Assembly (NCBI GenBank): GCA_028820695.1
Contig: JAPPIB010000050.1
Location: 217,146-281,145 of the forward strand
From: Acidiferrobacterales bacterium
Lineage (GTDB): Bacteria > Pseudomonadota > Gammaproteobacteria > Arenicellales > JAJDZL01
Reading direction: 5' to 3'
DNA length: 64,000 nucleotides
Of the stretch, positions 26,718 through 63,962 are shown in pieces. Each line of letters begins with the position of its first letter. Position 1 is the first letter of the stretch. Below the pieces are notes generated by a model. It saw only the letters and a program-made list of their open reading frames with translations, was not told where the DNA came from and did no database searches. Made by a program: the position numbers and the translations under genes.

Positions 26718-27305
26718 TTGCCTTTTGACAGCAAGCTCACACTGGTCGACAGAAAGGGACGCAAATATCTCACCGCCGACGAACGCCAGCGGTTTCTCCA
26801 CGCTGCGCGCCAGGCAGAACATCCCGAGGTGCAGACTCTCGCGTTGATGCTCACTTACACAGGCTGTCGGATTTCCGAGGCGCTTGAACTGCGGATGTGT
26901 GATATCGACCTTAATCGCTCAGTGGTCAATATCCAATCTCTCAAGCGCCGCTCGGAAGTGTGGCGCGAAGTGCCCATACCAAGCGAATTCGCCAGGGAAC
27001 TGGAACTGACCCATCAGTTGCGCAGACACCAGGTCGCGGCTCGTACCCGAATCACCCGGCTATGGAATTTCTCGCGTTCCACTGCCTATCGAAAGATCAC
27101 CGGCCTGATGGCGGCAGCGAATGTCTCCGGCACACAGGCCAGTCCCAAGGGTCTTCGCCACGCCTTCGGCATCGCCGCCGTCGAAGCCGGCGTGCCGTTG
27201 CCGACCATCGCCGCCGTGCTCGGCCATTCCAGTATCACGACAACCGCAATCTACACAACTGCTGTCGGCAAGGAGGCGAGGGAACTGCTGCAGAGAATGT
27301 GGTAG
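26718..27305 (+). CDS. Small catalytic-domain-only tyrosine recombinase (plasmid resolvase-like)
   Basis: RKYLT start, TGCRISEAL, SLKRR, PKGLRH, LGHSSITTTAIY; 195 aa. Confidence 0.9.
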   Translation: MPFDSKLTLVDRKGRKYLTADERQRFLHAARQAEHPEVQTLALMLTYTGCRISEALELRMCDIDLNRSVVNIQSLKRRSEVWREVPIPSEFARELELTHQLRRHQVAARTRITRLWNFSRSTAYRKITGLMAAANVSGTQASPKGLRHAFGIAAVEAGVPLPTIAAVLGHSSITTTAIYTTAVGKEARELLQRMW

Positions 27306-27420
27306 TCCCGGACATGCACACCAGGCCCGGAACTGAGTATCGGGCGAGCGACGCCATCGGCGCCGCCCGCCCGGCACTCACAACCCGGGTTCGGATCAAC
27401 CACTTAGTTGTCGGACTCGC

Positions 27421-28335
27421 TCAGATGTCGGTCACGCTCAAAGTGTCGATCAGTTCCTTGACCCGAGACATCTCGGGATGTATGTACTTCATGGTCGTAC
27501 GCACGTTGGTGTGCCCAAGCAGCATTTGCAACTCCTTGTACTTTCCCTGCGCGGCAAGCTCCGTCGCCATGGTATGGCGAAGACGGTGTGCGGAAATCTG
27601 AATGTCCGTCGCATAACCGACCCGCTTGAAGAAATTGGATACTGTCTGCGGCTCAAGCTTTCCCTCGGTTTTGTAGCGAGGGTTGAACAGGCCGACGTCG
27701 AACACAAATCGATCTTCGAAATCCAGAGCGTCGCCAATCTGCTTGAGCGTAAGCTCCTTCAGATACAGCAGGTCATTGGCAACCGGGCTCGGCAGCGGAA
27801 TCTGCCAGGACCGGTTGGTCTTGCTGTACTTCGCTCTGAGTTCGATGATCCCTTCCTCAAAATCGATATCCTGCCACATAAGACCACAAATCTGGGTACG
27901 TCGCATTCCGGTATAGAAGAGCGTCCGTACCAGCAAAGACCATAGCCAGTGCGGCTTGAACGGACAGTCCTCGCTCTCCAGAAATTGCACAACTTTCCTG
28001 ATTTCGTCCAATGACAAAGTTTTCGGCCTCTCAAAAGGAACTGGGGCATAGTGTATGGTGTAGTCTTTAGGATTCTTGATATATCCTTTTGCTACCGCAT
28101 ATTTCAGAATTATTCCGATATGCCTCAAGTAGCAGTTCCAGGTATTGGGACTGGTACCTCTTGCTTTCAGTTTTTCGCGCCACGCCACGAGACTATCTCC
28201 AGTCACCTGATTGACATCGGAGATTTTCATCTCCTTCTCAAAATGCCTGGCGATAAACTCGTAATTGATTCGACTCTGATCCGACAAGTCTTTTGCTTCG
28301 CCGTATTCACTTGCTATTGTTGATATTTTCTTCAT
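27421..28335 (-). CDS. Tyrosine integrase, pKLC102/PAPI-1 ICE type; start inferred from gagg RBS
   Basis: SAM-like N-domain (NTWNCYLRH), WLWSLLVRTLFYTGMRRTQ, SKTNR, HRLRH, LGH, TMKY. Confidence 0.9.
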   Translation of the reverse strand: MKKISTIASEYGEAKDLSDQSRINYEFIARHFEKEMKISDVNQVTGDSLVAWREKLKARGTSPNTWNCYLRHIGIILKYAVAKGYIKNPKDYTIHYAPVPFERPKTLSLDEIRKVVQFLESEDCPFKPHWLWSLLVRTLFYTGMRRTQICGLMWQDIDFEEGIIELRAKYSKTNRSWQIPLPSPVANDLLYLKELTLKQIGDALDFEDRFVFDVGLFNPRYKTEGKLEPQTVSNFFKRVGYATDIQISAHRLRHTMATELAAQGKYKELQMLLGHTNVRTTMKYIHPEMSRVKELIDTLSVTDI

Positions 28336-29037
28336 GATTGATGAATCCTCTTTCGAAAAGCAAAATATTGTATACATTGTTCGACTCCAGCCGGCCAAGT
28401 CGAAGACAGAGACGATGCCAGCGGTCGAATTGCTCGGATCGACGCACTGTCACACGCCGAATCCACGCCGGCAGGTCATGACACCCGCAATATTCCAGAA
28501 TCTGCCGAGCGACAGCGCCGCACATCTGCCATCCCCGCCATGCCGACACGCACCCGCGTCACCCTTCGCCGGCGATCCGGATCCAAGTGCGACCCAAGCC
28601 GCCTGGCGACATCAGCCACAGCGGACAAATCGATTGCAAGCCAGCGCATTGCGCCCCGTCAAGACCGCATTCGCCCCGAACAGTCACGTGTCTGCCCGGC
28701 AAAGTACTGTCTGAACCGAAGGTGTGAGGCGCCAGCCGCGATCCTCACTTGCCGGACCATCTGCTGCTGTCCTGGTTCAGGCTGCAGCCTAATTATTGGC
28801 TGGCGCAATTGCTGATCCCGCGTTCAGCCTGAGGCAGGGTGTCATGCTTGACGGAAGGCTGACGCGATTGAGCTGACGCGAGCAAAGCCCGAAGTGATGC
28901 CGAATCCATCACGTTGTCTCGGAACCTGTCGGCAGCGAAGTCGGAAAAGGCATGTACCGAACTGATGAGACGATCCGTCGTCATGCAACGAAAAATTCTG
29001 AATGAGGCCGCTGGGGACTGACTCATGGGTGACTTGT

Positions 29038-32169: not shown

Positions 32170-32211
32170 GGGCAGGGATTCTTGCGTTCACCAGGGTTGG
32201 AGTACATTTTG

Positions 32212-33369
32212 ATGAATCACGACAGTGCCACGACCGCACTTGCAAAAAAACTGATCCAGCAACCGTCAGTTACTCCTGACGACGCCGGCTGTCAGGCCAT
32301 TCTCGCCGATCTGCTGCAGAACGATGGTTATCGTGTCGAGCATATGAACTTCGGGTCGGTATCCAATCTGTGGGCGAGAATCGGTGACGAACGGCCGAAT
32401 CTGGTCTTTGTCGGACATACTGATGTCGTTCCAACCGGCGATGAGTCCGAGTGGATTTATCCACCATTTTCAGCGACGGAAGCCGATGGTGTGCTTTACG
32501 GCCGGGGTGCGGCAGACATGAAAGGCAGTATTGCAGCCATGGTGACCGCCTGTCAACGATTCCACTCCCGATACGAAACCTTTGCCGGGTCAATGTCATT
32601 ACTGATTACAAGCGATGAAGAGGGCATAGCCGTAGACGGCACCCGCCGCGTTCTGGAGGTATTGGATGCGAGGTCGGAGAAGATTGACTATTGTCTTGTC
32701 GGTGAGCCTACCTCGGTTTCGGAATTGGGCGATACGATCAAAATCGGTCGTCGCGGGTCTCTATGCTGTGAATTGGTTGTCAAGGGCAAGCAAGGACATG
32801 TTGCCTACCCGCATCTCGCAGATAATCCCATTCACCGTTCGGGCAGATTGATTGCCAGTCTTGCTGAGATGACCTGGCACGACGGAGGGACGGACTTTCC
32901 GGATACAACTTTGCAAATCTCCAATATCAACGCCGGAGTCGGTGCAGGAAATGTGATTCCAGGTCGATTGGACCTTTCGATGAATTTTCGATACTCTCCG
33001 GCTACAAAAGCCGCCACCCTGATTGACGATGTGGAATCTCTTTGCAGGAGCCTGAATCTGGACTATGAGGCGAACTGGGATCATTCGGCCGATTCCTACT
33101 ATACAAGCGAGACTTACTTTGCCGATGCGGTCGCCGATGCGGTCAGCCATATATTGAGCTGCAAGCCGATTCTATCTACGGATGGCGGGACATCTGATGG
33201 TCGGTTTGTTGCCGGTACCGGTGCCCAGGTCATTGAGTTGGGGCCGCTGAATTCGACGATCCACAAAGTCAATGAGTGTGTCGCGACGTCAGATCTGGAT
33301 TTGCTTTCACAAGTCTATGAGCGAATTATGGAGACAGTGCTTTTAGGAACTGATCATGGTACTGAATGA
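32212..33369 (+). CDS. dapE: Succinyl-diaminopimelate desuccinylase
   Basis: SVTPDDAGCQ, GHTDVVPTG, GRGAADMKG, TSDEEG, GEPT, GGTSDGRF, IHKVNE; ggag RBS before 32212. Confidence 0.96.
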   Translation: MNHDSATTALAKKLIQQPSVTPDDAGCQAILADLLQNDGYRVEHMNFGSVSNLWARIGDERPNLVFVGHTDVVPTGDESEWIYPPFSATEADGVLYGRGAADMKGSIAAMVTACQRFHSRYETFAGSMSLLITSDEEGIAVDGTRRVLEVLDARSEKIDYCLVGEPTSVSELGDTIKIGRRGSLCCELVVKGKQGHVAYPHLADNPIHRSGRLIASLAEMTWHDGGTDFPDTTLQISNINAGVGAGNVIPGRLDLSMNFRYSPATKAATLIDDVESLCRSLNLDYEANWDHSADSYYTSETYFADAVADAVSHILSCKPILSTDGGTSDGRFVAGTGAQVIELGPLNSTIHKVNECVATSDLDLLSQVYERIMETVLLGTDHGTE

Positions 33370-34579
33370 ACCGAATCAAGCCTCCGTCATAGATCTGGGG
33401 CATAAGTCATATACGCCCAATTACAAACCCCGAGACATCGTATTTCGTTCTGGAAGTGGCTGTCACCTTCAGGATATGGATGGAAACGAATACCTGGATC
33501 TGGGATCAGGAATCGGTGTCAACAGCTTAGGCCATAGGCATCCGGAAATTGTCGATGCATTGAACCACCAGGCATCGCGGATCTGGCATACCAGCAATAT
33601 CTATTTCACCGAGCCGCCGGTTCGGCTCGCTTCCCGGATCATCGACAGGACATTTGCCGAAAAGATATTTTTCTGCAATTCCGGCGCAGAGGCAAACGAA
33701 GCGGCAATAAAGGTAGTGCGCAAGTATGCCTACGAAAACCATGCTCCGGAAAAGCGAGTCATCATTACATTTGAAGGTTCATTTCATGGGCGGACAATCG
33801 CGTCGGTCACGGCTACCGCCCAACCGAAATATCATGAAGGGTTCGGTCCGCTGCCCGCTGGTTTTCGATATTGCGCATTCAATGATCTGGATAGTTTTAG
33901 AACTGCTTTGAAAGAAGATGTCTGTGCGGTCTTGCTGGAACCGATCCAGGGTGAAGGTGGGATACGCCCGTTTTCCGTGGATTTTCTTACGCAAGTTCGA
34001 AAATTATGTGACGAGAACGAATCGCTGTTGATATTCGATGAAATTCAATGCGGGATGGGCAGGACCGGACAACTCTTTGCCTATGAGTGGGCACACGATG
34101 TCGTGCCTGATGTCGTTACAATTGCCAAGGCACTTGGCGGCGGACTTCCAATCGGTGCAACCTTGCTTGGCAGCAAGCTCAACAACGTCCTCAGTCTCGG
34201 GAGTCATGGATCAACTTTCGGGGGAAATCCTGTGTGTTGCGCCGTGGCTGATGTCGTATTCAAGAAGCTCAGCGATGCAGATTTCCTGTCTCGTATCAGA
34301 ACAAAGGGTGAGTATCTGGTGTCCCGACTGACCCGATTGAATGAATGTACGGGATTTTTTGAGGAGATACGCGGCAAGGGCTTGATGATTGGGATGCAAA
34401 TCAGCCAAAGACATGGAGATATTGCCGCTCAAGTCATGCAAAGTTGCTTGGAGGAAGGCCTTCTGATTCTCCAGTCAGGGCCCAATGTCATTCGTCTGTT
34501 ACCCGCGTTGACGATCAGTGACGAAGAAATCAATCGTGGCGTAGAACTGCTTGAAAAGGCGCTGAAAAGGCACATTTGA
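33356..34579 (+). CDS. argD: Acetylornithine/succinyldiaminopimelate aminotransferase (class III)
   Basis: CNSGAEANE, SFHGRT, EPIQGEGG, FDEIQCGMGRTG, AKALGGG, HGSTFGGNP. Confidence 0.9.
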   Translation: MVLNEPNQASVIDLGHKSYTPNYKPRDIVFRSGSGCHLQDMDGNEYLDLGSGIGVNSLGHRHPEIVDALNHQASRIWHTSNIYFTEPPVRLASRIIDRTFAEKIFFCNSGAEANEAAIKVVRKYAYENHAPEKRVIITFEGSFHGRTIASVTATAQPKYHEGFGPLPAGFRYCAFNDLDSFRTALKEDVCAVLLEPIQGEGGIRPFSVDFLTQVRKLCDENESLLIFDEIQCGMGRTGQLFAYEWAHDVVPDVVTIAKALGGGLPIGATLLGSKLNNVLSLGSHGSTFGGNPVCCAVADVVFKKLSDADFLSRIRTKGEYLVSRLTRLNECTGFFEEIRGKGLMIGMQISQRHGDIAAQVMQSCLEEGLLILQSGPNVIRLLPALTISDEEINRGVELLEKALKRHI

Positions 34580-34699
34580 ACCATTTTGTTTACAATATAT
34601 CTGTTGAAACAACTATATAGGCAAAGCAGACATAGCAGCATAAGTTCCAGGCCGGTATTGCGGGAACTGCATTTCGATTCCGTGCCATTGCGCAATTGC

Positions 34700-34825
34700 C
34701 TCAACTGCTACGTCCGGGAATTCGCTGGACGACATTACCGCCGTTCGCCAGATACCGCCAACCAGATGGAATCCATCGTGCATGGGATGAGTGCGAGACA
34801 TCTCACATACAAGAAACCGGGTTGA
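34700..34825 (+). pseudogene. IS1595-family transposase C-terminal remnant
   Basis: LNCYVREFAGRHYRRSPDTANQMESIVHGMSARHLTYK resembles the recalled IS1595 C-terminus L.RYV.EFAGRHN.R..DT..QM.....GM.GKRL.Y. Confidence 0.65.
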
Positions 34826-34841
34826 TCAGGAGGGAGAGTCA

Positions 34842-35729
34842 ATGTCAAGGACCACAGCGATGCGCGCATTCGGCACTTCAGGCCGGGCAGGTCACGATTC
34901 GAGTGCTTTCTATGATCGGAGAATGTATGCCGATGACAAGTCTTCCGGTGCCGCGAAATCCGATGAAGAGATCGACTGCAGTGAAGATGTAGTCAATCGG
35001 GTCTACAATCATTCCAGCACCGACATGTACCATCTGCCGAGCAATTGCGTTCATCTGATGGTGACATCACCTCCCTACAATGTAGGCAAGGAATATGATG
35101 AGGATTTAACCGAGAACGAGTATTGTGACCTTCTGTATTCTGTTTGGCAGGAGGTTTATCGTGTACTGGTCCCTGGCGGCAGGGCGTGTATCAACATTGC
35201 CAACATTGGAAGAAAGCCATACATCCCGTTAAACGCCATGATATCTCGTCAAATGAGTGCGATCGGATACCTGATGCGAGGGGAGATCATTTGGGATAAG
35301 TCTGCCAGTGCAGGGGCTTCATGTGCATGGGGAAGTTGGAAATCAGCCTCAAATCCCGTGCTTCGCGATACTCACGAATACATACTTGTTTTCTCGAAAG
35401 GACAATACAATCGCCAGGCAAAAGACAAGGAATCCACGATAAACAAAGATGAGTTCCTTGAATTCACCAAAAGCGTCTGGAAGTTCCCTGCTGAATCAGC
35501 AAGACGCGTCAGCCATCCAGCCCCGTTCCCTCTCGAATTACCGAGAAGATTGATTCAGTTGTATACCTATGCCAATGACGTTGTACTTGATCCGTTTATC
35601 GGATCCGGCACAACTGCAGTTTCTGCGTCGCGCGCAGGGCGAAGGTATGTTGGATATGATGTATCTTCAGAATATGTAAAGATTTCTGAGACACGCTTGG
35701 TGATGGAAGGCCAGCCGTTGCTTGTATGA
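34842..35729 (+). CDS. N4/N6 DNA methyltransferase, beta class, apparently orphan
   Basis: Catalytic TSPPY before SAM motif DPFIGSGTT; HPAPFP; aggagg RBS before ATG 34842. Confidence 0.92.
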   Translation: MSRTTAMRAFGTSGRAGHDSSAFYDRRMYADDKSSGAAKSDEEIDCSEDVVNRVYNHSSTDMYHLPSNCVHLMVTSPPYNVGKEYDEDLTENEYCDLLYSVWQEVYRVLVPGGRACINIANIGRKPYIPLNAMISRQMSAIGYLMRGEIIWDKSASAGASCAWGSWKSASNPVLRDTHEYILVFSKGQYNRQAKDKESTINKDEFLEFTKSVWKFPAESARRVSHPAPFPLELPRRLIQLYTYANDVVLDPFIGSGTTAVSASRAGRRYVGYDVSSEYVKISETRLVMEGQPLLV

Positions 35730-35985
35730 ACTGTCCCAAGTCCTGACAAGCGTAAACGATTCGCTGCAGGAGACCCTGTCGCATTCGATCAGCCCGACCT
35801 GCATAGGTTCGAGATAGGACAGATGGAACCTTCGTCAATTGCGCTCAGATAGCGATCAGTTACTGGCTGGTTATAGAAGCTCGACAAGCAATCCGGAAAG
35901 ACTGCTGGAATACCATCTTTCCCCGTGAAGACAGTCTGGCTGGGGGTAATTCCCCAATGCCGAACTTCGTCGCAAACGGAAATAA

Positions 35986-37092
35986 TCAGGCGGTTGCGGG
36001 CTGGGTCGCGTCTAACGCGCGACAATCTTCGGATTGCCACCCGATCGAGATTTCCTGGCCATATTCCAGATTGACGTGACCGTGTGAATTTGGAATCTTG
36101 ACTATGAAATCACTTTGTCCGCAAAGACTGACACGAGTTCGTACATGATCGCCCAGGTAAATCACCTCTTCAACTTTGGCTGGAACAACATTTGCACAGG
36201 TACCCGGTTCCGGTTGGACAGTGACTCGCTCTGGTCTCAATGACAGTGTGGTACGGGAATTATTGCCATCAATATTGACAACCTTGGCCTGGACTGTATT
36301 TCCATCCGAAACCTCAACATCGCATACGCCATTTGAAACGTTCCTGACAGTTCCGAACAGAACATTGTTTTCTCCGATAAACTGCGCGACGAAAGCATTT
36401 TCCGGCTCTTCATAGAGATCATCCGGCGGGGCTAATTGTTGAATGATTCCATCATTGAACACCGCAATCCGATTCGACATGGTCAGTGCTTCGCCTTGAT
36501 CGTGGGTGACGTAGATCACGGTTACATCCAGATTTTCGTGGATATGCTTGATTTCGTATTGCATCTGTTCGCGGAGCTGTTTATCAAGGGCTCCTAACGG
36601 TTCGTCCATCAAAACCAGCTTGGGCTCGAAGACCAGCGCCCGCGCCACTGCAACCCGTTGCTGCTGACCACCTGAAAGCTGTCCCGGCAGTCTTGCGCCG
36701 AACTCACCGAGCTGAACCATATTCAGAGCCTTGTTCACCCGATCCTCAACTTCGGACGCGGGTAACTTTCGAACACGGAGCGGGAAGGCTAAATTCTCAC
36801 TCACCGTCATATGCGGGAAGAGGGCATAGTTTTGGAAAACCATCCCAATATCACGTTTATGAGGAGAGACGTGATTAATTGGATTTCCATCGAGAATGAT
36901 TTCGCCATGCGTCGCAGTTTCAAACCCAGCGAGCATCATCAGGCACGTTGTTTTCCCGGAACCTGAAGGGCCCAACAACGTAACAAACTCTCCCTTCGCC
37001 ACAGAAAGGTTTAAGTTTTTGACGACCAAAGTTTCGCCGTCATAACTTTTTTGAACGTCAACAAACTGGACGTATGATTCTTTTTCTTTCAT
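35986..37092 (-). CDS. Polyamine-type ABC transporter ATPase (PotA-like) with TOBE tail
   Basis: GPSGSGKTT, MVFQNYALFPH, LSGGQQQR, LMDEPLGALD, LRPE. Confidence 0.9.
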   Translation of the reverse strand: MKEKESYVQFVDVQKSYDGETLVVKNLNLSVAKGEFVTLLGPSGSGKTTCLMMLAGFETATHGEIILDGNPINHVSPHKRDIGMVFQNYALFPHMTVSENLAFPLRVRKLPASEVEDRVNKALNMVQLGEFGARLPGQLSGGQQQRVAVARALVFEPKLVLMDEPLGALDKQLREQMQYEIKHIHENLDVTVIYVTHDQGEALTMSNRIAVFNDGIIQQLAPPDDLYEEPENAFVAQFIGENNVLFGTVRNVSNGVCDVEVSDGNTVQAKVVNIDGNNSRTTLSLRPERVTVQPEPGTCANVVPAKVEEVIYLGDHVRTRVSLCGQSDFIVKIPNSHGHVNLEYGQEISIGWQSEDCRALDATQPATA

Positions 37093-37152
37093 TACAGATA
37101 CCTATGTTGCCTTGCTCCTCGCCCGGTGTAGTATAGGATATTACAGGTCGAA

Positions 37153-42457: not shown

Positions 42458-42462
42458 GACGG

Positions 42463-53843: not shown

Positions 53844-54354
53844 CTAGGTCACTATCATCTGTTGGGGTTGGATTGCGTCCGGTCAGACCGATCGAAAGTT
53901 CATGATCCGCAAATGTCAACGTCAGTCCTCTTGAATGGACTTTCTGTACTTTAGCCAGCCGGACCGAATCACCTTCCTGCAATCGGTAGTGTCTTTCCTC
54001 GATTCTTCCGAGAGCTGTTAGGTTTCCAGGGGATCCGACAATTGCATAAACTTCGAGGTGTTGATCAAACCAATTAATCCGATCAATTACGGAGTCAGAA
54101 ACCGAATTTGTCTCCGTTGCAGACGGTGCCAGTGTTTCTTGATTCGATAGCAATTCTGTAATCTGTGATGCGGTCTGGTGATAAGTGAGAGCATACTGCA
54201 GGATCTCGAGTTGATTTTGCAGACAGTCAATCAGTGCCACGGTGTGTGCGAGACCCCTGCATTGTGCGGGAATCTGATTGAGTTCGCCCGATTGCGCATT
54301 TCCATTGAAGAACAATACAAAGACGGCCGACATGAATCTAATTTTGCTTGCCAT
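53833..54354 (-). CDS. PilP-like type IVb pilus protein; start inferred from aggag RBS
   Basis: Signal peptide, VYAIVG..G.LTA and L.EGD..V..V motifs; position between PilO and PilQ. Confidence 0.65.
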   Translation of the reverse strand: MASKIRFMSAVFVLFFNGNAQSGELNQIPAQCRGLAHTVALIDCLQNQLEILQYALTYHQTASQITELLSNQETLAPSATETNSVSDSVIDRINWFDQHLEVYAIVGSPGNLTALGRIEERHYRLQEGDSVRLAKVQKVHSRGLTLTFADHELSIGLTGRNPTPTDDSDLDDR

Positions 54355-55567
54355 AGAATTCTCCTTGAATTTCCCAATTGAATTTACGATCGAGCGAATA
54401 ACTGATTCGGTTAATACGAAACGGCTGTCCGATGAATGCGTTTGCGACGAAGACTGCATCTGTGAGTTTTGAGGAAGAACCAGTCAGTTTCGATGTCTGA
54501 TACTTGTAGAGTTGCCCCATGGGTTTTGCCGGACTCAAGGTCCATTCACCCGGCAGTGTTGCTAATGTGTCTAGCAATTCATAACGTTGGTTTTCTTTAC
54601 CCAGCAGTAACTCGAGTGATGAATCACCAGATAGTTCCTGGGCCGGAAAGCTGAATCTTTCAGCAATATCGCCGGTTGATTCATTCAATTCGTAAGTTCT
54701 GTCGCCGAAGTAAGCAGTGATCGCCGCAAAGTAGCCGCGCTCCCTTCGCCAATTCACCGATACCTGGCCATCTCTCCAATCGTAACTGTGTCTGCGCCAG
54801 CCATTTACCCGGAGTGGTTGCTCCTTGACCATGTCAGTCATCGATGCAAGCAGTGCAGGGGCGTTCTGCATAAGTGTCTGCCGGACCGATTCTTTTTCGT
54901 CGTTCAACGCCTTAGCGTAATGCCGCTGTTTCGTCAGACTGTCAGCTTCGTCGTTGCGGATGATCTCCGATAGGTAGGGCCAAGAGGCAAGCCCGCCAAT
55001 CACCATCAACGAGCCAATAACTGCTGCGATAAGTTTCTTGTTGAGAATCTTTTGTTCCGCAGACAGGCAAATTGGAAGGTTGTCCGATGTGGATTCGGAA
55101 ACCAATTCAAGAAATCCAAGAGATTCGGAATTCGACAGGTCAAAATGTCCATGTTTATCATACAGTTGTATGTTGGTGCCGGCGATATCAGTCTTTATTT
55201 CCTCAAGTCGATTTGCGATCAGATCCTTGTTGCCAACAATATCTCCAGCTGGAAAAATCGCGCCATCTTCGACAGCGCACAACCAAAACTCATCGGTGGA
55301 CAGTTGTTCAATCAATACAGCCGATAGTCGGGAAGTCGCGAGCTTTGCCGCGGCGCTTTCACATCCGATATCCTCTGATTCCGTTACCGCGCCAATTTGC
55401 AAACCGGATGGCGTGTCAATGTGGACGTAACCGAAAGGTGTAGGTTTTATTGACTGCAGTTCCCTGAAAATCTTGTACTTGCTACTGCTAGGTGTCAATA
55501 CACTTGGTGCCAGCCAGGTAAGACCCACGGCATATTCCTTGTCGTCGAGAAAACGTTTGGTCATCAC
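54338..55567 (-). CDS. PilO2-like type IVb pilus protein
   Basis: YAVGLTW, SAAA.LA, FWLCAV.DG.I.PAGD, single TM. Confidence 0.75.
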   Translation of the reverse strand: MMTKRFLDDKEYAVGLTWLAPSVLTPSSSKYKIFRELQSIKPTPFGYVHIDTPSGLQIGAVTESEDIGCESAAAKLATSRLSAVLIEQLSTDEFWLCAVEDGAIFPAGDIVGNKDLIANRLEEIKTDIAGTNIQLYDKHGHFDLSNSESLGFLELVSESTSDNLPICLSAEQKILNKKLIAAVIGSLMVIGGLASWPYLSEIIRNDEADSLTKQRHYAKALNDEKESVRQTLMQNAPALLASMTDMVKEQPLRVNGWRRHSYDWRDGQVSVNWRRERGYFAAITAYFGDRTYELNESTGDIAERFSFPAQELSGDSSLELLLGKENQRYELLDTLATLPGEWTLSPAKPMGQLYKYQTSKLTGSSSKLTDAVFVANAFIGQPFRINRISYSLDRKFNWEIQGEFYGKQN

Positions 55568-57147
55568 CCCATACCCGTTGCGGTACCGCGTGCCAGCTCA
55601 TATGGCAAACGGATGATGTAGGGCGTGAGAATCAGAACTAGACTTGCCCGGCGGTTTTCTAAACTAGACTCTTTCATCAGGATTCCGCTCGAATCTCGGT
55701 TCGTCACTCTCGAGGTGTCAAGGCCTGCAACGAAAAGTGTTTCGCCCGATTGAAGCAGTACCGGCAATAAAACTGAACGAGACTCCAGGTCTGGAAGTTG
55801 GATCACGGGATCGTTCGGTCCGGCATTGACTGGAAACCTGCTGATTCCCTTGATCCGGGTGGTTCTGACAGTAATGTTCAGCATCAGTCGATCAGTGTTT
55901 GGCAGCACACGCGGCACCATATTCAACGCGATCCCGTCCTGAAGCTTTCCCGGAATGAGCCGTACTGATGTAAGTCCCTCATCATGAACGACGTCTCGTC
56001 TTTCCAGATAAGATGTCTCATCGCCGAAAAATACTGGCACTGGAAGGCCGTTGATTCCCTGAATCACCGTCGAAGTGAGTTTGGAAATTCGAGCATCATT
56101 CATCGCCTGACGAAAAGTCAGCCCAATGTCACTATGGTCAACCGCAGCGTCTTCTGAATGAGTCAATTTCAGTCCAAATATCGATCCCTTGTCGTCACTG
56201 CTAAATCGGACATGGGCAGCTGATTTACCCAACGCCTCCTTCATCATTCCCTGCAGGTTGAATCCGGCAATCGCGTCATCCGATCTTTCAATTTCGTAAA
56301 GATCGACATGAACCTGCACTTGTGTGGACAGCTCCTTATTTTTCGCAGATACCCATTCATCGACTCTATTCAGAGTCAGTGGGGTATCCACCACATTCAG
56401 TTCTCCTGACTGACGATTCAGCGAAAATGTTCCGAAACTGGAAAGGAATCCCTCGACTGTCGATTCCAGTTCATTCCAGAAATCTGCAGTATTCATTGAC
56501 ACGACTACCTGATCCTGGGCTTGCAGTGTCGAGCCGCCGACGCCACCCTGGACTGCGCCACTCAGACCGACAGATGCTTGCCATTGAGCGGTAACGTTGG
56601 GGGCGAAGATAGTCCAGCTTTCGGGTCTCGTATGGAAAATCTCTACGCGGCCGTCAATAAACTTCCAAAAAAGCCCGAACCGACCGGTTATGTGATTCAA
56701 CGCGGCGCTGGCAGGACCCTGCCAACTCAGATTTGAAACCACAACATCCTGTATGTCCGGAGCGACAGTGACCCCCACACTGGTTTCGGAACCGATCAGT
56801 TTACCGATCTCAGCGATCGTCACCGGTTCGACATAAGTCATTTCGATAACTTGATCAAGTTTTTCGGGTATCGGCTGTGGAATCGCACTGCTGCGGATGG
56901 GTATTCGATGTCCGATCCACGATTGCGACGTGGAAAACGTCAGCTCATCGGATTCGGTCGGGCTACCACTTTCGCGAGAATTATTGAGATTGATCTGAAT
57001 TTCCATTTCTTCCTGCTTGGCTCTATCCACTGTCTGTTGGGGTATTCGGCACCCCGCTAAGATCGCAAGCACCAGGATCATGGACACAACTTTTGGCAAC
57101 TCGCGATGAAGAGTCATATCATCGACTGCCTGGAGAGTTGGGTTCAA
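55564..57147 (-). CDS. Type IVb pilus secretin PilN-like lipoprotein
   Basis: Lipobox LAGC, LNVVDTP..L.RV..W, TSYL, IQLP, L.SGETL, LVLILTP. Confidence 0.88.
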   Translation of the reverse strand: MNPTLQAVDDMTLHRELPKVVSMILVLAILAGCRIPQQTVDRAKQEEMEIQINLNNSRESGSPTESDELTFSTSQSWIGHRIPIRSSAIPQPIPEKLDQVIEMTYVEPVTIAEIGKLIGSETSVGVTVAPDIQDVVVSNLSWQGPASAALNHITGRFGLFWKFIDGRVEIFHTRPESWTIFAPNVTAQWQASVGLSGAVQGGVGGSTLQAQDQVVVSMNTADFWNELESTVEGFLSSFGTFSLNRQSGELNVVDTPLTLNRVDEWVSAKNKELSTQVQVHVDLYEIERSDDAIAGFNLQGMMKEALGKSAAHVRFSSDDKGSIFGLKLTHSEDAAVDHSDIGLTFRQAMNDARISKLTSTVIQGINGLPVPVFFGDETSYLERRDVVHDEGLTSVRLIPGKLQDGIALNMVPRVLPNTDRLMLNITVRTTRIKGISRFPVNAGPNDPVIQLPDLESRSVLLPVLLQSGETLFVAGLDTSRVTNRDSSGILMKESSLENRRASLVLILTPYIIRLPYELARGTATGMG

Positions 57148-57907
57148 TCAGTAACACCGAGTTTCCCTCAAAGAAGGTGGCGGTCAAACCAAAAGGTGAG
57201 GTGCGATAATGTTCCAGAACCGCTTTTACCGCATCTTGCAGCGTACCCTGATACGCGGCTGAATACAGAATTTCGTAATCGTGATCGCTATTCCATTCAA
57301 GCGCCCAGTCAACTTCGAGTGCCCATCGGGCCAGGTTCTGGCGTAGAGTCAATGATGGGTTCAATGTCCATACCTGCTTTGTTGGTTTTTGGCTGGCACG
57401 TTGGTGCTTCGGTTCGGCCACATCATGATCGTAGACGGGAACCTCTGGATTCGGGTCCTGAGGTGGATCTTCAGGTATCACCTCCGTTTGGGGTAACGCA
57501 CCGGCGTACTGAAACCAGATGACTCTTTTTGTTTGGTCCTCAAGTAAATTCCATGAACTTCCAATCAATGTCTGAAGGGCTGTGCGAGTATCCACAGGGC
57601 CGATGCTTCTGTGTACCTGTGGCAACGTTAGCAGCAGCGCATCGCTGACCGCATCTGTGGGAACATGACGATACCCTGAACGCAACAGTACGTAATCGAT
57701 TGCCGAGCCTACGGTTGCAATCCGCGCCGGAAACGTGGTTTCCACAATCGTAGACAGCAGATCTTCCTCGTTACTTTCTGCTGTGTAGGCGTAAACGGTG
57801 TAGCGATTCGAATCACGATTGTCCGCAGCGTCAGCGACAGCTATACAGGTCAGCATCATCATGATGGGATATCGCTTCAGAATTTTGGTTGTCAGTTTCA
57901 CAATCAT
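57119..57907 (-). CDS. PilL-like protein (PilL N-domain plus TcpQ domain)
   Basis: RYT, TVGSA..YVL.RSGY, LP.VHR.IGP, then TLRQNLARWA...W.LEW..DY. Confidence 0.85.
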   Translation of the reverse strand: MIVKLTTKILKRYPIMMMLTCIAVADAADNRDSNRYTVYAYTAESNEEDLLSTIVETTFPARIATVGSAIDYVLLRSGYRHVPTDAVSDALLLTLPQVHRSIGPVDTRTALQTLIGSSWNLLEDQTKRVIWFQYAGALPQTEVIPEDPPQDPNPEVPVYDHDVAEPKHQRASQKPTKQVWTLNPSLTLRQNLARWALEVDWALEWNSDHDYEILYSAAYQGTLQDAVKAVLEHYRTSPFGLTATFFEGNSVLLIEPNSPGSR

Positions 57908-58094: not shown

Positions 58095-59012
58095 CTAGTG
58101 GGCGCAGCCTTCTCCCAGCAGAAAGTTTCTGGCTTTCCATGCTTGCGCACTGGAGTTGAAAATCGCTTTCGGATCGTTTTCCAGAACTTCAATCCACGAC
58201 AAGATATAGGAATCGTGACTGGGATCGCGCGGAATCCGAAACTCCGCACATAGAAAGGCTGAGCCAATTTCTGCGATCATCTCTTCAAACGCATATTCCG
58301 TGGTGCCGATCCGACTGCCATTGGTTATGCCGGGACGGCTCAGTCGGGTGGAATGCCCCGTCCAATGGGTGAGTTCATGCATCAGAGTGCTGTAGTAGTC
58401 AGACTTGTTTTCGAATGCGCATTTCGGAGGCATGCATATGAAGTCGCCTTTGGGTGTATACGAGGCTGAATCACTGGTATGGTGAACACTCACCTTGTTG
58501 GAGATAATCAGGTCTTCGGCTTCCTGATGCAGCTTCCATGCCGGTTTTTGGTCGTGGACCGGCGGGCCTTTTATCACCTTGTCGGGCAGCCCGGTGCATT
58601 GTTCGACGTTGAACAACGTAAACCCCCGGATGAGTTTGATGATGTTGGTTTTAGGGACGTCATCCTCGTCGACTGATTGGGTACCGTCGGATTCCTTTGG
58701 CGCAACCCTAATGTCACGATACAAGACAGCCGCAGTTCCCTTCTGACCTCGCTTGACTCTTCCTCCAGCCTTGCCAACCTGCTTAAAAGTCAGCCATCGA
58801 TCGCGCGTAAAACCGTGGGAAACAGCCGATGACCACAGAATGGCGACATTAATGCCAGAATATTTTCTCTCCGTTACGGCGTTGACTGGCCTGTCGCAGT
58901 ATTGGTCGATATCTGACCACGGTTTTTTCCACGGTGGCGCGCCGCGTTTCAGTGCTTCGAGAAATTGATTGGTAATTCGAAAATACAGATTGTTTACTTC
59001 GTTGGCAGCCAT
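58095..59012 (-). CDS. ardC: ArdC-family ssDNA-binding antirestriction protein (DUF1738 plus zincin-like domain); start inferred
   Basis: PPWKKPW, YSGIN, WLTFKQ....GG.V.RG.KG, FNVEQC, HELTHWTGH, YAFEE..AE.GSAFLC. Confidence 0.9.
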   Translation of the reverse strand: MAANEVNNLYFRITNQFLEALKRGAPPWKKPWSDIDQYCDRPVNAVTERKYSGINVAILWSSAVSHGFTRDRWLTFKQVGKAGGRVKRGQKGTAAVLYRDIRVAPKESDGTQSVDEDDVPKTNIIKLIRGFTLFNVEQCTGLPDKVIKGPPVHDQKPAWKLHQEAEDLIISNKVSVHHTSDSASYTPKGDFICMPPKCAFENKSDYYSTLMHELTHWTGHSTRLSRPGITNGSRIGTTEYAFEEMIAEIGSAFLCAEFRIPRDPSHDSYILSWIEVLENDPKAIFNSSAQAWKARNFLLGEGCAH

Positions 59013-59475
59013 TGTTTCAATATGTTGTGAAAATTGGAACAAGTTAGCAGGACGAAAACGCGGATCCTGCAAAAAAGAGAAACCCGGTCAGCTAGTTTTA
59101 TTGATCCTGATTGGGGTCTTGGTTCGTATAAGACTGTTGGAGAGGAACACCTCTGAATTCCCACAATGCGAGTGGTTGCGCGGTGTCCGATTTTCATGAG
59201 ATGCAGCTTTCGCCTGTCATCAGTTTTGGTCTTCCTGAGAGCAGGTTTCCAGTCAGCTTAAGGCCGGCATCTGATCTTGAAACGAAAATCTGCGGTCTTT
59301 CACTTCATTGCGATTGATGTGGATGCACAGGCACCTGTGGGTTGTATGGGTATCTGGTTGATCCTGCTCATAGCTGTCGTCCTGAGAATCATCGCAAACA
59401 TCGGTTGCGTCCGCCCGCAATTATTCAAACCCAGCTGGTTAGCATGAGCAGAGACTTTACCGAGCGAATTCGGAC

Positions 59476-60798
59476 CTATTTGGTTGTTTCGCGCGAGTCC
59501 CTGATGTGGTGATCGATCCTGCGCCGGTATCTTTCGCGAGCATCCGCAACTGCTCGTTGTTTTTCCTTCTGACCTCGCCGCTTTTCAATAACAGCTTCTG
59601 CATGCTCGACTTGGAAATGACCGTCAGACTTGAGTCCCATTCCTTTGGTCAGCAATTTTTGGCAGTATGTAGACATCAGTGACACTGGATTCCAGACCGA
59701 ATCACACTTGCTGTTGATGCCCATTTCAATTCTGCCGGCCAGTTCATCCAGGAGCAGTTGTCTCCAGTCGTTCCAAGGTTTGGGAGGTACTGGTAAAGAA
59801 TCCGGCAATCGTTGAAGATGCAACTCAATCAGGTGTTTTTGATTGTTACTGAGTGAACTGGGGTAAATCAGTTCACACGAACCGGAGTTTTCATCCTGTG
59901 AACTGGACAAGTCTTCTTTGATCATCTCTTGGTGATCGTAGTGATAGTTATATCTATTTGATTTAATACCACTACTACTATTACATACCTTTTGTTTTCC
60001 GTGGTTCACAGCGTGAACCACGGGTTCACGGGAGCTGTAGTCTATTGAGTGAACTGCGGGTTCGCACACACCGTGGTCTATTGGGTGAACTGCGGTAGTG
60101 TGAACTTTACCGCCAGCATCGCCTGATGTGGATTCCTGCTCAAAACGAGGATGTGTGAACATGTTCGGACGGCCTTGGGAAGTTGAGTTGTTTTCTCCCC
60201 CGAAATGAGCCCAGGCATCTGAGCGTCGATCAAACGGATGGCTGTCCGCAAATAATTTGTCACTGTGCTCCATACTGCAGCGAATGGAGTTGATGATCAG
60301 TTCCGAAATCTTTCTGACATCGGAATTTCGATGGTTCCGGCTGTCCTGTAGAAACTGCATGTAGTTCGAATCCAACTTGAAGGTGTCGCTGAATCCCAAC
60401 GGCTCACCATGGATCAGGTAAATATTTCCGTCTTTGGAGATCTGGCCAACTTCATTGCGAACTTTTTCGCGACAAATCAGAGTCAGCCAACGTGTGGCTC
60501 TCAGTTTTGTAATCGAACTGGCAACTGTACCCCTGGAAATGTGAAGAGATGATTGAATCTGATCGTAACTGGGAAAAGTAACCATGGACATGTCCGGTGA
60601 GCAGTATGATCTGATCGACATCCACACCAGCTTGTCGTAAGGATTCAATACGGGGTCGAATATCAGCAATCGGGGATGGGAGTCGTACCAGTTGTCGGTG
60701 AATACCATCCCCGAGGCTGAGCGGTCGTTCTGCCTGAAAATTTTGATTGCCTGATGAATTCCACGGAATTCATGATCATGGTCAATGGGTCGGCTCAT
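59476..60798 (-). CDS. STY4528-family ICE replication protein (wHTH)
   Basis: PRLL..D..L.P.DK..W, FPSYDQ, LRATRWLT, GNIYLIH.EP, D..YM.F, LLDELAGR, NP...Y. Confidence 0.82.
   Translation of the reverse strand: MSRPIDHDHEFRGIHQAIKIFRQNDRSASGMVFTDNWYDSHPRLLIFDPVLNPYDKLVWMSIRSYCSPDMSMVTFPSYDQIQSSLHISRGTVASSITKLRATRWLTLICREKVRNEVGQISKDGNIYLIHGEPLGFSDTFKLDSNYMQFLQDSRNHRNSDVRKISELIINSIRCSMEHSDKLFADSHPFDRRSDAWAHFGGENNSTSQGRPNMFTHPRFEQESTSGDAGGKVHTTAVHPIDHGVCEPAVHSIDYSSREPVVHAVNHGKQKVCNSSSGIKSNRYNYHYDHQEMIKEDLSSSQDENSGSCELIYPSSLSNNQKHLIELHLQRLPDSLPVPPKPWNDWRQLLLDELAGRIEMGINSKCDSVWNPVSLMSTYCQKLLTKGMGLKSDGHFQVEHAEAVIEKRRGQKEKQRAVADARERYRRRIDHHIRDSRETTK
59853..60160. repeat. Intragenic iteron-like cluster (GTGAAC x10; three 36-bp units) flanking an AT-rich tract; candidate oriV
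   Basis: GTGAAC at 59853, 59898, 60013, 60049, 60085, 60100, 60155; GTTCAC at 59871, 60004, 60024; AT-rich 59941-60000. Confidence 0.7.
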
Positions 60799-60854
60799 GA
60801 TTGTTCTCGTTCGGTATTGAAAATTCTGTAGTCATGACAGCATAAGGAAACCAG

Positions 60855-61475
60855 TCAGCGAACCTTGTGGCGCGCCGATGATTGGCGGGAGGTGATTGGG
60901 CCTCGGTTGACTTTCAATGCCCCTTCATCTTCCCAGCGATGAAAGAGATTCCAGATCACGCGCAACGAAACTTTCCTGTCCATCGACTCATACAGATCAA
61001 GAAACTGTTTCGGACCGAATGAGTCAGATTTTTCGGTGATGGCTGTCAGTTGCTGCCAGACGAGTTGGGTAGTGCTATCTGATGGGATGGGAGGTCTTCC
61101 GACCGGAGAGCCCAGTAAACCCGCCTGCCGTCGTTTGAGCGCATATTGCTTGCTTCCAATCCCTGTCAGTGCATTCATGAGAGGCAAGGGAGCGTCGAAT
61201 GCAATCAGTTGGTTGATGACTGCTTCTTTAAGGTTTTCCTGGTCGACATAATCGATCATTCTCCAATAGACATCCTGATTGAGTACGATTTTCATGAAGT
61301 GTGATTTGGTGGATGCAAGGCGAATCTGATCGCCGGATGACAGGGCATTCAGCGCTCTCATCTCGCGTGGCCCGAATCCCATCTCTTTCAGTGCATGAAA
61401 ATCCCCTTCCTCCTGGCATCGCAGACAGTAGATGATGATCGAGTGCATTAGTTCAGTTTCTTTTCTTATAGTCAT
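60855..61475 (-). CDS. DUF2857-family protein (BisC-like); start inferred from aaggag RBS
   Basis: GDF.AL..MGF, LI...AP..LM..L.G, RR..G....GRPP, SL.VIW; position after ParB-like gene. Confidence 0.8.
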   Translation of the reverse strand: MTIRKETELMHSIIIYCLRCQEEGDFHALKEMGFGPREMRALNALSSGDQIRLASTKSHFMKIVLNQDVYWRMIDYVDQENLKEAVINQLIAFDAPLPLMNALTGIGSKQYALKRRQAGLLGSPVGRPPIPSDSTTQLVWQQLTAITEKSDSFGPKQFLDLYESMDRKVSLRVIWNLFHRWEDEGALKVNRGPITSRQSSARHKVR

Positions 61476-63144
61476 TTCGAATTTCTCCTTGTTTGGGTGG
61501 TCGAAACAATTGAACTCCATTTTTTCTTGACAGATGATGCAGTGAACGGTAAAGGGTGTTGAGGTGATTCAATTCATTCCAGGAGGCCTCATCCAACTGG
61601 CGCAGACAGAATGTCAGCAGGCTCAGGTGCGGGTACGTTAACTTCATTACTCCTTTGGCGTGCAGGGACAGCGTTCTTGAATTTCCGGATTTGACGAAAT
61701 TGAGGAATTTGGAATTTCCAACCAGTTTTGCGACCAACGGGCGCGCTCGTTCCGTAGCCCATTGCAAGTCACAGAATTCAACCAGGAACCACCACAGAGC
61801 ATCGCGTGTCCCAATTTGACTGAGGTTGCTGTCCGAAGCGGCTGCGGGGTAGTCCGTAATCAGGAATCCGATCCCCCAATTCCCGATATTTGATACTATC
61901 GTGTTTTTCGTGACCTTGTTCTCGTGAAAATCGTAGCGCTTGGCCAACTTCAATGCGATTTGATAGCAAAGCCGTCGCATTCTTTCCACTTCAAGTTCAA
62001 GCTCGGACTTTTGTTGTCCACTTGGCGAGCTGAACGAAAAGATCGGCGGTATGCCGTCGGACACGTCGGTTGCGTCATCTTGATCCGCGTCTACAACTGC
62101 AACTGTCGCACTAGTATTGTGCGCCAATTCTTCGTTATTCGGGGTGTTTACACTGCGAACAGTCGGATTTTGCTCTATTTTGGTGCGTTCATTGATCCAT
62201 TCGATCTGATCGAATTTGGCGAATTCTGTGTTTATTGCCTCCGGCGAATGTCGCAATGGACTTTCTGTCACATGCAAATAACCATCAATTCGCAGGGCGA
62301 TGTCCTGAATCGACAGTGACTGGGCAGCAGACAGGGCTGATTCCAATGAACGGCGAAATGAGGAGTGCGACCACTCTAGTCCTTCGTAGTTTTTCAGCGT
62401 GTTCCTAAAGGTAGACGCTGCGATACGTTTCGAAATCTCGAACTCGCTACAGACATTGTGAAACGCTTTTTCCAGGGAGCGCAACTTTTGGACTTGCGGC
62501 CGGCCCATTGCAACGCAGATCTCCCTCGGCAAGAGTGGTTCAAGGCTGTCAGACGCGTACAGCATTATGGAAATGGAGCTGATCGTTGTGTTGTATCCCT
62601 TTCGAGCAAGCATTTCCCGAATATCTCTCAACGACAGATCACTGCTGTCCGCCTCCTGTTTAAGGTGCTCGATTGCGAGTTTCGTACCGAATGCGCGATC
62701 GATGAAGCATAGTGATTTACGCATCTGATTTTCCTGCAGATGCCCGACAATCGCGTCGGATTCAAATCCAGTCCAAGGGTGAAAAAGGCAGTCGACAAAT
62801 CGGTATTTGCGATCACCGGTTTCACTGTATAGCTCCTGCACGGCCTTAAGGCGGGTGTTCCCTCCTTTATAGATCGTGAATTTTTTCGAGCCTGGTCGCT
62901 GTGTAACGGCGAGGGGTTGATTTATTCCATCCCTGGAAATCGAATCCTTGATTCGCTTGAAGTTCGGATTTCGCATTCTTCTAGGGTTCTTGTCATATGT
63001 CTCGAGGTCCGAGATTGGAATGGTCAAAAATGTTTTCGTGACAAGACTCGCCACGAAATTTGTTTCCTGCTCGAAGTCTGATACCTTTTGCGGCCGCAAC
63101 CTTTGTGCGATCTGCTCGCTTGATGGTCGATTGCTCATGGTCAC
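61453..63144 (-). CDS. ICE ParB-family protein (TIGR03764/BisD-like)
   Basis: YDKNPR..RNP.F..IK.SI...G, TQRPG, GGNTRL, GHL.EN..R..L.FIDRA, MGRPQ. Confidence 0.87.
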   Translation of the reverse strand: MTMSNRPSSEQIAQRLRPQKVSDFEQETNFVASLVTKTFLTIPISDLETYDKNPRRMRNPNFKRIKDSISRDGINQPLAVTQRPGSKKFTIYKGGNTRLKAVQELYSETGDRKYRFVDCLFHPWTGFESDAIVGHLQENQMRKSLCFIDRAFGTKLAIEHLKQEADSSDLSLRDIREMLARKGYNTTISSISIMLYASDSLEPLLPREICVAMGRPQVQKLRSLEKAFHNVCSEFEISKRIAASTFRNTLKNYEGLEWSHSSFRRSLESALSAAQSLSIQDIALRIDGYLHVTESPLRHSPEAINTEFAKFDQIEWINERTKIEQNPTVRSVNTPNNEELAHNTSATVAVVDADQDDATDVSDGIPPIFSFSSPSGQQKSELELEVERMRRLCYQIALKLAKRYDFHENKVTKNTIVSNIGNWGIGFLITDYPAAASDSNLSQIGTRDALWWFLVEFCDLQWATERARPLVAKLVGNSKFLNFVKSGNSRTLSLHAKGVMKLTYPHLSLLTFCLRQLDEASWNELNHLNTLYRSLHHLSRKNGVQLFRPPKQGEIRNDYKKRN

Positions 63145-63962
63145 ATGGCTCTTGCGACAGAATGCATCCTGTCAGACTCCACAGAAAAATCCGGTAGCAA
63201 CTCGGTTGCGAGTGAAGTCATGCTTTCGTTTGCACTGGTCCCGAATCTCCTTTTTGTCTCGAACCGATGCACCGGAACTTGTGCGGACGCCGCATCGCGG
63301 TAAACGGTTCTGTCGGGAATGCTGGTGTTGAGCAGATTGACTTGCGGCAACTCTCCGATCAGATAACGGATCTGACGTGCCAATTGTCTTGCATCAACAG
63401 TCGGCCGTGTCCGGTAGATCAGGGCATGCATGGAAAGTGGCAGATTGATTGCGCCGTATGATTTCCTGAGACGTCCGAGAATAGGAACGATGCCACGAAA
63501 GAACTCTCTTGCAGAGAGCATGTCGGGCACAATTGGCGAAAGAAGCAAGTCACTCGAAAGAATTGCCGAATCCAATACCGCGCTTGAAGCGCCTTGCGTA
63601 TCGATGATCACAAGATCATAGCTGTTCAGCTCCAGCAAGACGTTGCGCATTCGATTTCGTCCGTCCGGCTGTTTCTTTATTTCCCTGTCGCACTTGTTGT
63701 CCGGATCGTCAGATCTCACGATGTCCAGCCGGCTAACGGAGGTTTTACTGATGGAGTTGTTTATGTCAACATGGGAGAATATTCGGGTTATGCCGTAATC
63801 GGATTGAACGGTCAATGGGAAGTAGGTACTTAAGGATGGTTGGGGATCTGTATCGATCAGCAAGACTTTCCAACCACTTTCTGCAACAAAACCCCCTAAA
63901 TTGGCGCAAAGGCTGGTTTTTCCGACTCCACCTTTGGTGCTACAGACTGTCATTACGTTCAT
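63141..63962 (-). CDS. parA: ParA/Soj-family ATPase; start inferred from gaggag RBS
   Basis: STKGGVGKT, LLID.DPQPSLS, YDLVIIDTQG, AREF.RG. Confidence 0.92.
   Translation of the reverse strand: MNVMTVCSTKGGVGKTSLCANLGGFVAESGWKVLLIDTDPQPSLSTYFPLTVQSDYGITRIFSHVDINNSISKTSVSRLDIVRSDDPDNKCDREIKKQPDGRNRMRNVLLELNSYDLVIIDTQGASSAVLDSAILSSDLLLSPIVPDMLSAREFFRGIVPILGRLRKSYGAINLPLSMHALIYRTRPTVDARQLARQIRYLIGELPQVNLLNTSIPDRTVYRDAASAQVPVHRFETKRRFGTSANESMTSLATELLPDFSVESDRMHSVARAM

Follow-up and report, generated by a model that had tools for sequence, protein, structure and literature searches.

Among the described systems closest to the locus treated here are integrative conjugative elements (ICEs) of pKLC102/PAPI-1/ICEclc type, in which a mating-pair formation apparatus of class G (MPF_G) goes with a relaxase of class MOB_H; pKLC102 and PAPI-1 target tRNA-Lys. 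Our element lies in a stretch of 64,000 nucleotides (hereafter the window) from an Acidiferrobacterales bacterium of the order Arenicellales, and shares with these ICEs the gene order parA–bisD–bisC–STY4528, a type IVb pilus, an operon running from TIGR03759 to TIGR03755, a TraG_N gene, an integrase and an ancestral attachment (att) site in tRNA-Lys. Unlike them, it is devoid of TraD, TIGR03747, MobH, lytic transglycosylase, single-stranded DNA-binding protein (SSB) and topoisomerase III (TopB), occupies a chromosomal site that is shared between genomes, has descended vertically over three genera, contains a single-copy dapE and, in a large genus (g1), has att cores detached from the tRNA gene. 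It is a former pKLC102/ICEclc-type element that lost its cognate coupling module and captured the only dapE of its host.

Chromosomal systems of conjugative origin are also known, several of which (Ptl, Brucella VirB, ComB, Trw, the gonococcal genetic island and PAPI-1) are covered in one review (PMC12857230). The Trw system of Bartonella is a chromosomal, conjugation-derived type IV secretion system (T4SS) without its coupling protein; according to that review, it is similar to the R388 system and carries several copies of its pilin genes (PMC12857230). Unlike Trw, our element keeps an integrase, an att pair, ArdC and, in trans, a fusion of type IV coupling protein (T4CP) and relaxase. The gonococcal genetic island (GGI) of Neisseria likewise joins a chromosomal T4SS to a relaxase able to move chromosomal DNA, but it is described there as F-like with a cognate MOB_H in cis (PMC12857230), whereas our system is MPF_G with a complete type IVb pilus, and its relaxase is non-cognate and encoded in trans. 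MobB and MobC of CloDF13 are a T4CP and a PD-(D/E)XK relaxase, as are the two parts of our fusion; unlike them, the fusion is one chain of ~820 aa, chromosomal, usually single copy and co-diverged with its host. According to a 2012 T4SS survey, MOBless T4SS are frequent and many chromosomal ones have no neighbouring integrase, while only MPF_T and MPF_I had been shown in protein delivery, MPF_G being largely unknown (PMC3548315). Unlike such MOBless loci, the element holds two recombinases under purifying selection. Regarded as an MPF_G ICE, it has the VirB4 and its operon, the integrase and the att repeats, and it lacks TraD, MobH and horizontal spread; it resembles the exapted systems without T4CP at the locus only, departing from them by its integrase and by the fusion elsewhere in the genome. 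Searches of the open-access literature turned up no description of the element or of a fused chromosomal MobB–MobC.

Vertical descent of the element across three genera

The window corresponds to positions 217146–281145 of contig JAPPIB010000050.1 (C28, which runs 348 bp beyond the window end) in assembly GCA_028820695.1 (G000), a metagenome-assembled genome (MAG) of 2.77 Mb in 58 contigs, 97.6% complete. Genes were called by scanning the open reading frames (ORFs) of the window with NCBIfam and Pfam profiles, while comparisons involved a set of 36 genomes from one marine Arenicellales family (G000 and 35 relatives) and 165 other Arenicellales. Window DNA was found in one sponge metagenome run, possibly its source (the sponge association concerns G000 only), and a 140-kb contig from that run spans the whole element, even if it is not independent of the G000 assembly.

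This MPF_G/type IVb-pilus element is composed of 31 genes of its own, in pKLC102/ICEclc order, and 5 cargo genes. Read from the right on the minus strand, these are parA, the ParB-like TIGR03764, DUF2857, STY4528, ArdC, pilL/N/O/P/Q/R/S/V, a prepilin peptidase, a DotF/TraP-like ORF, TIGR03759, RAQPRD, a 73-aa ORF in the TIGR03758 slot, DUF2976/TIGR03745, TIGR03750/46/49/52/51, the VirB4 ATPase TIGR03744, TIGR03757 and TIGR03756, then terC, potA, an N4/N6 methylase, argD and dapE, and finally, at the left end, TIGR03755, TraG_N, a 325-aa integrase and a 195-aa tyrosine recombinase. VirB4 reaches 899 bits against TIGR03744 (cut-off 521); TIGR03744, 46, 49, 51, 52, 55 and 56 all score above their cut-offs, and TIGR03750, 57 and 59 are below them but in their slots. 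An earlier note, made from the sequence of the window alone, had counted about 25 uninterrupted ICE genes with overlapping starts and stops: the number rises to 31, all element ORFs are indeed uninterrupted, and 16 of the 26 junctions from parA to TIGR03756 overlap, five of them by exactly 4 bp (with ORFs called from their first start). The Walker motifs that it had read in both ATPases are conserved across the family, with Walker A and B intact in 28/28 VirB4 copies and Walker B in 20/20 PilQ, the consensus of which also has the Walker A motif GxxGSGKST.

TIGR03744 was recovered in 30 of the 35 relatives, versus 20 of the 165 other Arenicellales, and the resident arrangement in 28 of the 36 family genomes, mostly at one shared site. 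On the left, most of the g1 genomes fetched have ppx next to the element, generally accompanied by sixA; on the right, the neighbour is metZ or the HMG-CoA lyase cluster in 9 of 10 readable flanks (G020 differs). One genome is partial (G002) and two are too fragmented to judge (G023, G028), while the arm from parA to about TIGR03757 has been deleted in five (G009, G011, G016, G021, G025), at the same site and with dapE kept. These deletions have different breakpoints, look independent and affect single tips. dapE is single-copy in 35/35 relatives, and the only copy of G000 sits inside the element. As side observations, the deleted arm is now replaced by restriction-modification genes and insertion sequence (IS) elements in G016 (L124), G021 (L126) and G009 (L134), and TIGR03757 was not found in the five genomes of genera g2 and g3.

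Trees were compared with rpoB using one genome per species (26 species, three genera), so that they bear on transfer between species, and leaving out two broken rows (the rpoB ORF of G032 and the split fusion of G015). The 28 resident VirB4s form one clade with a support of 1.0, sister to a clade of second-copy ICEs (see below). The splits shared with rpoB amount to 18/23 for VirB4, 21/23 for ten MPF genes, 18/23 for the pilus genes and 14/23 for the fusion, against a maximum of 2–3 with shuffled labels; neither the element genes nor the fusion show any strongly supported conflict with the rpoB tree, and patristic distances correlate with those of rpoB at r = 0.95–0.96 for the element genes and 0.95 for the fusion. 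Across selected genome pairs, Nei-Gojobori ratios of nonsynonymous to synonymous divergence (dN/dS) were 0.09–0.21 for MPF, 0.14–0.32 for the pilus, 0.10–0.23 for partition/ArdC, 0.06–0.17 for the cargo, 0.12–0.36 for the fusion and 0.03–0.15 for rpoB. Between G000 and G017, they were 0.11 (MPF), 0.15 (pilus), 0.11 (partition/ArdC), 0.10 (integrase), 0.18 (fusion) and 0.05 (rpoB), with a synonymous divergence that tracks rpoB (dS of 1.11 for the element vs. 0.99). Third-position GC content (GC3) is also host-like (0.539 in the element vs. 0.546). The element has therefore been inherited vertically across three genera under purifying selection. The earlier note had judged exaptation a better fit than random decay and had named patchy horizontal distribution and neutral dN/dS among the grounds for abandoning its reading; its rejection of random decay holds, the genome's only dapE being moreover aboard, while the distribution gives no strong conflict with rpoB and dN/dS in the element stays at ~0.1–0.3.

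Missing coupling genes and an unlinked MobB–MobC fusion

The normal place of TraD and TIGR03747, between RAQPRD and TIGR03759, is reduced to a gap of 117 bp, and no relaxase gene stands between TraG_N and the integrase. In the whole G000 genome, there is no match to TIGR03760, PF07514, TrwC, MOB_P Relaxase, MobA_MobL/MOB_Q, TIGR03747 or MobH, and tblastn searches with four TraD and six MobH queries returned nothing outside the element. One SSB, one below-cut-off TopB match (an 888-aa ORF) and two lytic transglycosylase (SLT) ORFs of ~700 aa exist in the genome, all outside the element, so that the gene absences listed in the earlier note are borne out. The selective loss of DNA-processing genes that it proposed is not complete, as integrase, att sites, ParA/ParB-like proteins, STY4528 and ArdC remain. 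The TraD slot is empty in 20/20 family loci first examined, as well as in the further loci fetched, versus the elements of family f9, which retain TraD in its slot in 4/4 cases checked. In that family (G155, G158, G167, G185 and others), a TIGR03744 element occurs in 11 of 41 genomes.

Full TraD (7 copies) and weak MobH matches were found in just 5 of the 35 relatives, each beside a second, non-resident VirB4. These second-copy ICEs, which retain TraD, are located in G017 (L140:9107-10063), G024 (L028), G025 (L029), G029 (L030) and G040 (L027). Since their MobH-like ORFs, ~310–320 aa long, are devoid of 3H and HD motifs, a further relaxase may be required even by these “complete” ICEs. In G025 (L130–L132), a resident-type-like pilus cluster runs into a TraD-bearing ICE, beside an inverted int-dapE-argD-potA-terC block and one att copy, an arrangement that likely results from recombination between resident and mobile copies.

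A relaxase hidden past the right edge was considered and ruled out, since an att core closes the element just beyond the window. In the relatives, metZ is the right neighbour; in G000, the contig carrying metZ begins with what looks by eye like toxin-antitoxin-like, reverse transcriptase-like and IS-like debris. There is also a low probability that the 195-aa recombinase serves as a TcpM-like relaxase.

The TraD model has a single weak match in G000, on contig C51. The open frame there encodes 824 aa, in which a coupling-protein domain (PF02534, above cut-off) precedes a C-terminal MobC domain. The latter aligns with NF041423 over profile positions 18–237 of 240 (E 6e-48, 163 bits, below the 200-bit cut-off), the fusion of one relative scoring 202 bits. 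A structure model of the fusion (predicted local distance difference test of 79) shows three helices at the N-terminus and gives matches to TrwB and HerA; the MobC part of the fusion has no sequence match in the PDB. The earlier note had named a cognate relaxase and T4CP, just past the right edge or elsewhere in the element, as a ground for dropping its reading: such a protein does exist in the genome, although it is unlinked and non-cognate, and nothing lies beyond the right edge. The fusion (scored by MobC) is present in 31 of the 35 relatives (32/36 family genomes), whereas MobC occurs in only 5 of the 165 other Arenicellales, there unfused. Walker A and B are intact in 29/29 copies and the nuclease motif PD..ExERxxK..Y in 27/29. 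Usually single copy and chromosomal, the gene is a solitary one: its flanks vary from one subclade to another, and no integrase was seen among its recurring neighbours within 1.5 kb. Porin-like paralogues are often next to it and contig ends often close by (C51 of G000; L098, L099, L103, L118), C51 also carrying large helicase-like ORFs. Near-full-length homologues make up the top 48 clusters (42–100% identity) among the best 120 of 312 protein matches, the rest being shorter, while the closest plasmid matches are adjacent but separate mobB and mobC genes (31–37% identity). In one of the family searches with TIGR00929 and PF02534, 20 candidates per genome were scored; among the candidates scored, every TIGR00929 match was an MPF_G VirB4 and every PF02534 match but one was the fusion. 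It follows that neither the channel nor the fusion has another resident partner found, the fusion being the only coupling protein found in the family apart from the second-copy ICEs.

A 23-bp direct repeat marks both ends of the element, and its two copies are the only matches in the G000 genome when up to 3 mismatches are allowed. The left copy coincides with the tRNA-Lys(CTT) anticodon arm in G031 and G033 (the repeat of G033 is marginal, with a score of 15 vs. 13 when shuffled); in G032, G034 and G035, the tRNA-Lys(CTT) gene is found outside the core, at a distance of a few hundred bases, and genus g1 has no such gene next to it. The repeat occurs at matching positions, and left and right spacers are identical, within each of the 23 resident genomes with both flanks (5/28 lacked one flank), even though 13 spacer forms exist between genomes; independent draws would match in ~12% of cases, though kin are not independent. 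Tyrosine recombination needs identical spacers, and the within-genome identity thus suggests continued recombination between the element ends. Integrase motifs were read in 23/28 (HxLRH) and 19/28 (LLGH..Y) copies, some misses being possibly due to ORFs cut at locus edges. No excised circle was seen in the contigs of one sponge metagenome run, contigs being prone to drop rare forms.

Possible uses of the channel

The family thus combines a channel that lacks a coupling protein with a coupling protein that lacks a channel. As both are restricted here to this one family and have been selected since its root, the simplest view is that they work together. The best reading, in our opinion, is trans-coupled DNA transfer from cell to cell, through the resident MPF_G channel and by means of the unlinked fusion, and we hold it to be as likely right as wrong: the domains, motifs and co-divergence of the fusion are observed, while its use by the channel is deduced. 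In such a transfer, the BisDC-like pair would activate the operons in some of the cells, recombination of the two att cores by the integrase would free a circle of ~38 kb, and the type IVb pilus would bring cells together; the fusion would then nick a putative origin of transfer (oriT) and pump a strand (of the circle and/or the flanking chromosome) through the channel into a close relative. There, ArdC would protect the incoming strand, which would recombine into the already occupied site, hence no cross-species jump would be visible in trees. As dapE is presumably essential, a cell that lost the whole circle, and with it the captured copy, would die. More tentatively, and with the chances rather against it, the family may have assembled a heritable mating system from two mobile elements of unrelated origin: an MPF_G ICE would have supplied channel, pilus and switch, and a small MOB_C plasmid the fused coupling protein/relaxase. 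This system would carry chromosomal DNA between symbionts of the same species, and an essential gene would hold its excisable part in place.

Published work offers precedents for several of these steps: MobB/MobC of CloDF13 can use channels of the types IncF, I, N, P, W and C (PMC13635750; many channel types also in PMC11389934), BisDC of ICEclc, which the ParB-domain and DUF2857 genes of the element match, is a transfer activator (PMC7423338), and ArdC acts in recipients (PMC7213743). The lytic transglycosylase of ICEclc is dispensable, with ~3% transfer remaining without it (PMC10018362). Several observations nevertheless weigh against coupling in trans. ICEclc cannot do without TIGR03747 and its cognate T4CP (PMC10018362), so that a substitute is required here, and a MOB_C/MPF_G pairing was not found in the open-access literature at hand. 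No oriT-like conserved motif was detected around the fusion (450 bp upstream, 300 bp downstream) or in 15 element spacers, and parA was not found in 10 resident genomes with parB fetched. Moreover, losses of channel and fusion are uncorrelated: the fusion is intact in 5/5 genomes with the arm deletion, it was not found in three genomes that keep MPF (G027, a one-contig genome, G004 and G007), and it is broken in three others that keep it as well (a frameshift at the domain junction in G001, an insertion in G014, a stop in G015). Losses of either module are limited to single tips, except in the sister species G001 and G027, both without an intact fusion, where the dN/dS of MPF is still 0.12. 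Finally, in rate covariation, the coupling domain of the fusion reaches 0.23 for 13 element genes, compared with 0.05 for 20 host genes, which weakly favours coupling, but this value is equalled by a single host gene (frr, 0.23), the top single partner being lpxD. A seemingly strong covariation (r = 0.73 with the MPF core), obtained with only four host sets, was set aside once it had shrunk to this level with 20 host genes. As for DNA exchange concentrated at the element, there was no sign of it in four close pairs. Separately, G016 (L124–L125) and G017 (L060–L061) differ by a dS of 0.04–0.15 over traG-int-sixA-ppx versus 0.54 for rpoB, with an identity mosaic of 81–99% per 500 bp, hinting at recent exchange between the two lineages.

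Other functions were weighed as well. The earlier note favoured a MOB-less secretion or adhesion system, and a Trw-like organelle, in which channel and pilus would ensure adhesion to, or contact with, the sponge or neighbouring cells while the fusion is kept for an unrelated reason, does accord with the absence of the cognate T4CP, with an MPF intact in the six genomes where the fusion is missing or broken, with the fast divergence of the PilV-like tip protein (dN/dS of 0.47–0.52 in two close pairs) and with the documented existence of T4CP-less systems (PMC12857230). Yet it leaves unexplained both the selection on the integrase, the paired att spacers and ArdC, and the co-divergence of a motif-intact fusion within this same family, where no other channel was found. 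Moreover, the roles of att sites, integrase, BisDC-like genes and ArdC lie in the excision and entry of DNA, not in adhesion. For these reasons, we consider it doubtful and no longer the best reading of the locus. The same fusion and channel could instead secrete single-stranded DNA to the outside, without a recipient cell, as a transformation substrate or biofilm matrix. The GGI, a chromosomal T4SS and relaxase releasing chromosomal DNA, is a precedent (PMC12857230), but the full type IVb pilus is under selection here and such a pilus is essential for PAPI-1 mating (PMC12857230), and the recipient-acting ArdC is also retained under selection, which makes release unlikely.

Trans-coupled transfer might also profit the element rather than its host: a selfish ICE, addictive through its captured dapE and using the fusion as a helper, would persist by reinfecting deletion-bearing cells of its own species. 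Its att sites and integrase are kept, the five tip deletions look independent and have different breakpoints, and G025 shows recombination between resident and mobile copies. However, the absence of any cross-species jump in 26 species, the lack of an integrase among the recurring neighbours of the fusion within 1.5 kb, and the vertical inheritance of the fusion itself, which needs host-level selection, leave this scenario with a slim chance. As for a decaying ICE or an assembly artefact, which the 58-contig MAG and the arm deletion in five relatives could bring to mind, both are excluded for practical purposes by vertical inheritance, dN/dS of 0.1–0.3, a dS tracking rpoB and host-like GC3; furthermore, the same order recurs in 28 genomes, many of them in one contig, and one 140-kb contig, albeit not independent, spans the element.

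Layout of the locus and significance

The features of the locus are collected in Table 1. No Rfam match and no tRNA were found in the window. The two palindromes upstream of the small recombinase are kept in nearly all g1 genomes and are likely to be protein-binding sites, possibly autoregulatory or recombinase sites. Farther away on the same contig (G000:C28:183178-184344), the murC model TIGR01082 has a match that is below cut-off, as it is in 36/36 family genomes; we read it as mpl, the true murC not being located by that search, and the TIGR01082-matched regions were used for identity profiles only.

Table 1. Features of the element and the unlinked fusion (window positions, unless a contig is given)
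Feature	Position	Strand	Remarks
Left att core	26020–26042		7-bp spacer between inverted arms; origin in the anticodon arm of tRNA-Lys(CTT), outside any tRNA here
Two conserved imperfect palindromes	26566–26700		~28 bp each, ~155 and ~50 bp upstream of the small recombinase
195-aa tyrosine recombinase	26718–27305	+	Catalytic domain only; dN/dS 0.06–0.17
325-aa integrase	27421–28398	-	SAM-like domain; R, HxxRH, H, Y motifs intact; dN/dS 0.10 vs. G017
TraG_N (VirB6-like) and TIGR03755	29038–31916	-	
Captured host block	32182–37803		dapE (single copy), argD/dapC-like aminotransferase, potA-like ABC ATPase, terC-like
N4/N6 methylase	34791–35729		Within host block; local addition
MPF_G operon	38158–47660	-	TIGR03759 to TIGR03756
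VirB4	39620–42457		Within MPF_G operon
TIGR03758-slot ORF	46269–46487		Within MPF_G operon
Type IVb pilus cluster	47674–57907	-	pilL-N-O-P-Q-R-S-V, prepilin peptidase, DotF/TraP-like ORF
PilV-like tip protein	49111–50628		Cys-rich C-terminus, no Pfam match, Shufflon_N-like by features
ArdC	58095–59072	-	Anti-restriction/ssDNA-binding protein; HExxH intact in 24/24
parA, ParB-like TIGR03764 (BisD-like), DUF2857 (BisC-like), STY4528-family gene	59476–63971	-	
parA	63141–63971		
Right att core	C28:281159–281181		42 bp upstream of parA, 14 bp outside the window
MobB–MobC fusion	C51:7655–10126		

Whichever mechanism holds, the family offers a clear case of ICE domestication, because its MPF_G is family-wide, vertically inherited and under purifying selection. 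With an att pair that drifted in step after leaving its tRNA and with five natural deletion lineages, this case is open to read-based testing. If the fusion is indeed the coupling module, a host would be able to swap the whole substrate-recognition module of a T4SS for a foreign one, “MOB-less” calls based on the locus could miss a far-off chromosomal partner, and gene transfer would have been kept in this family as the host's own trait.

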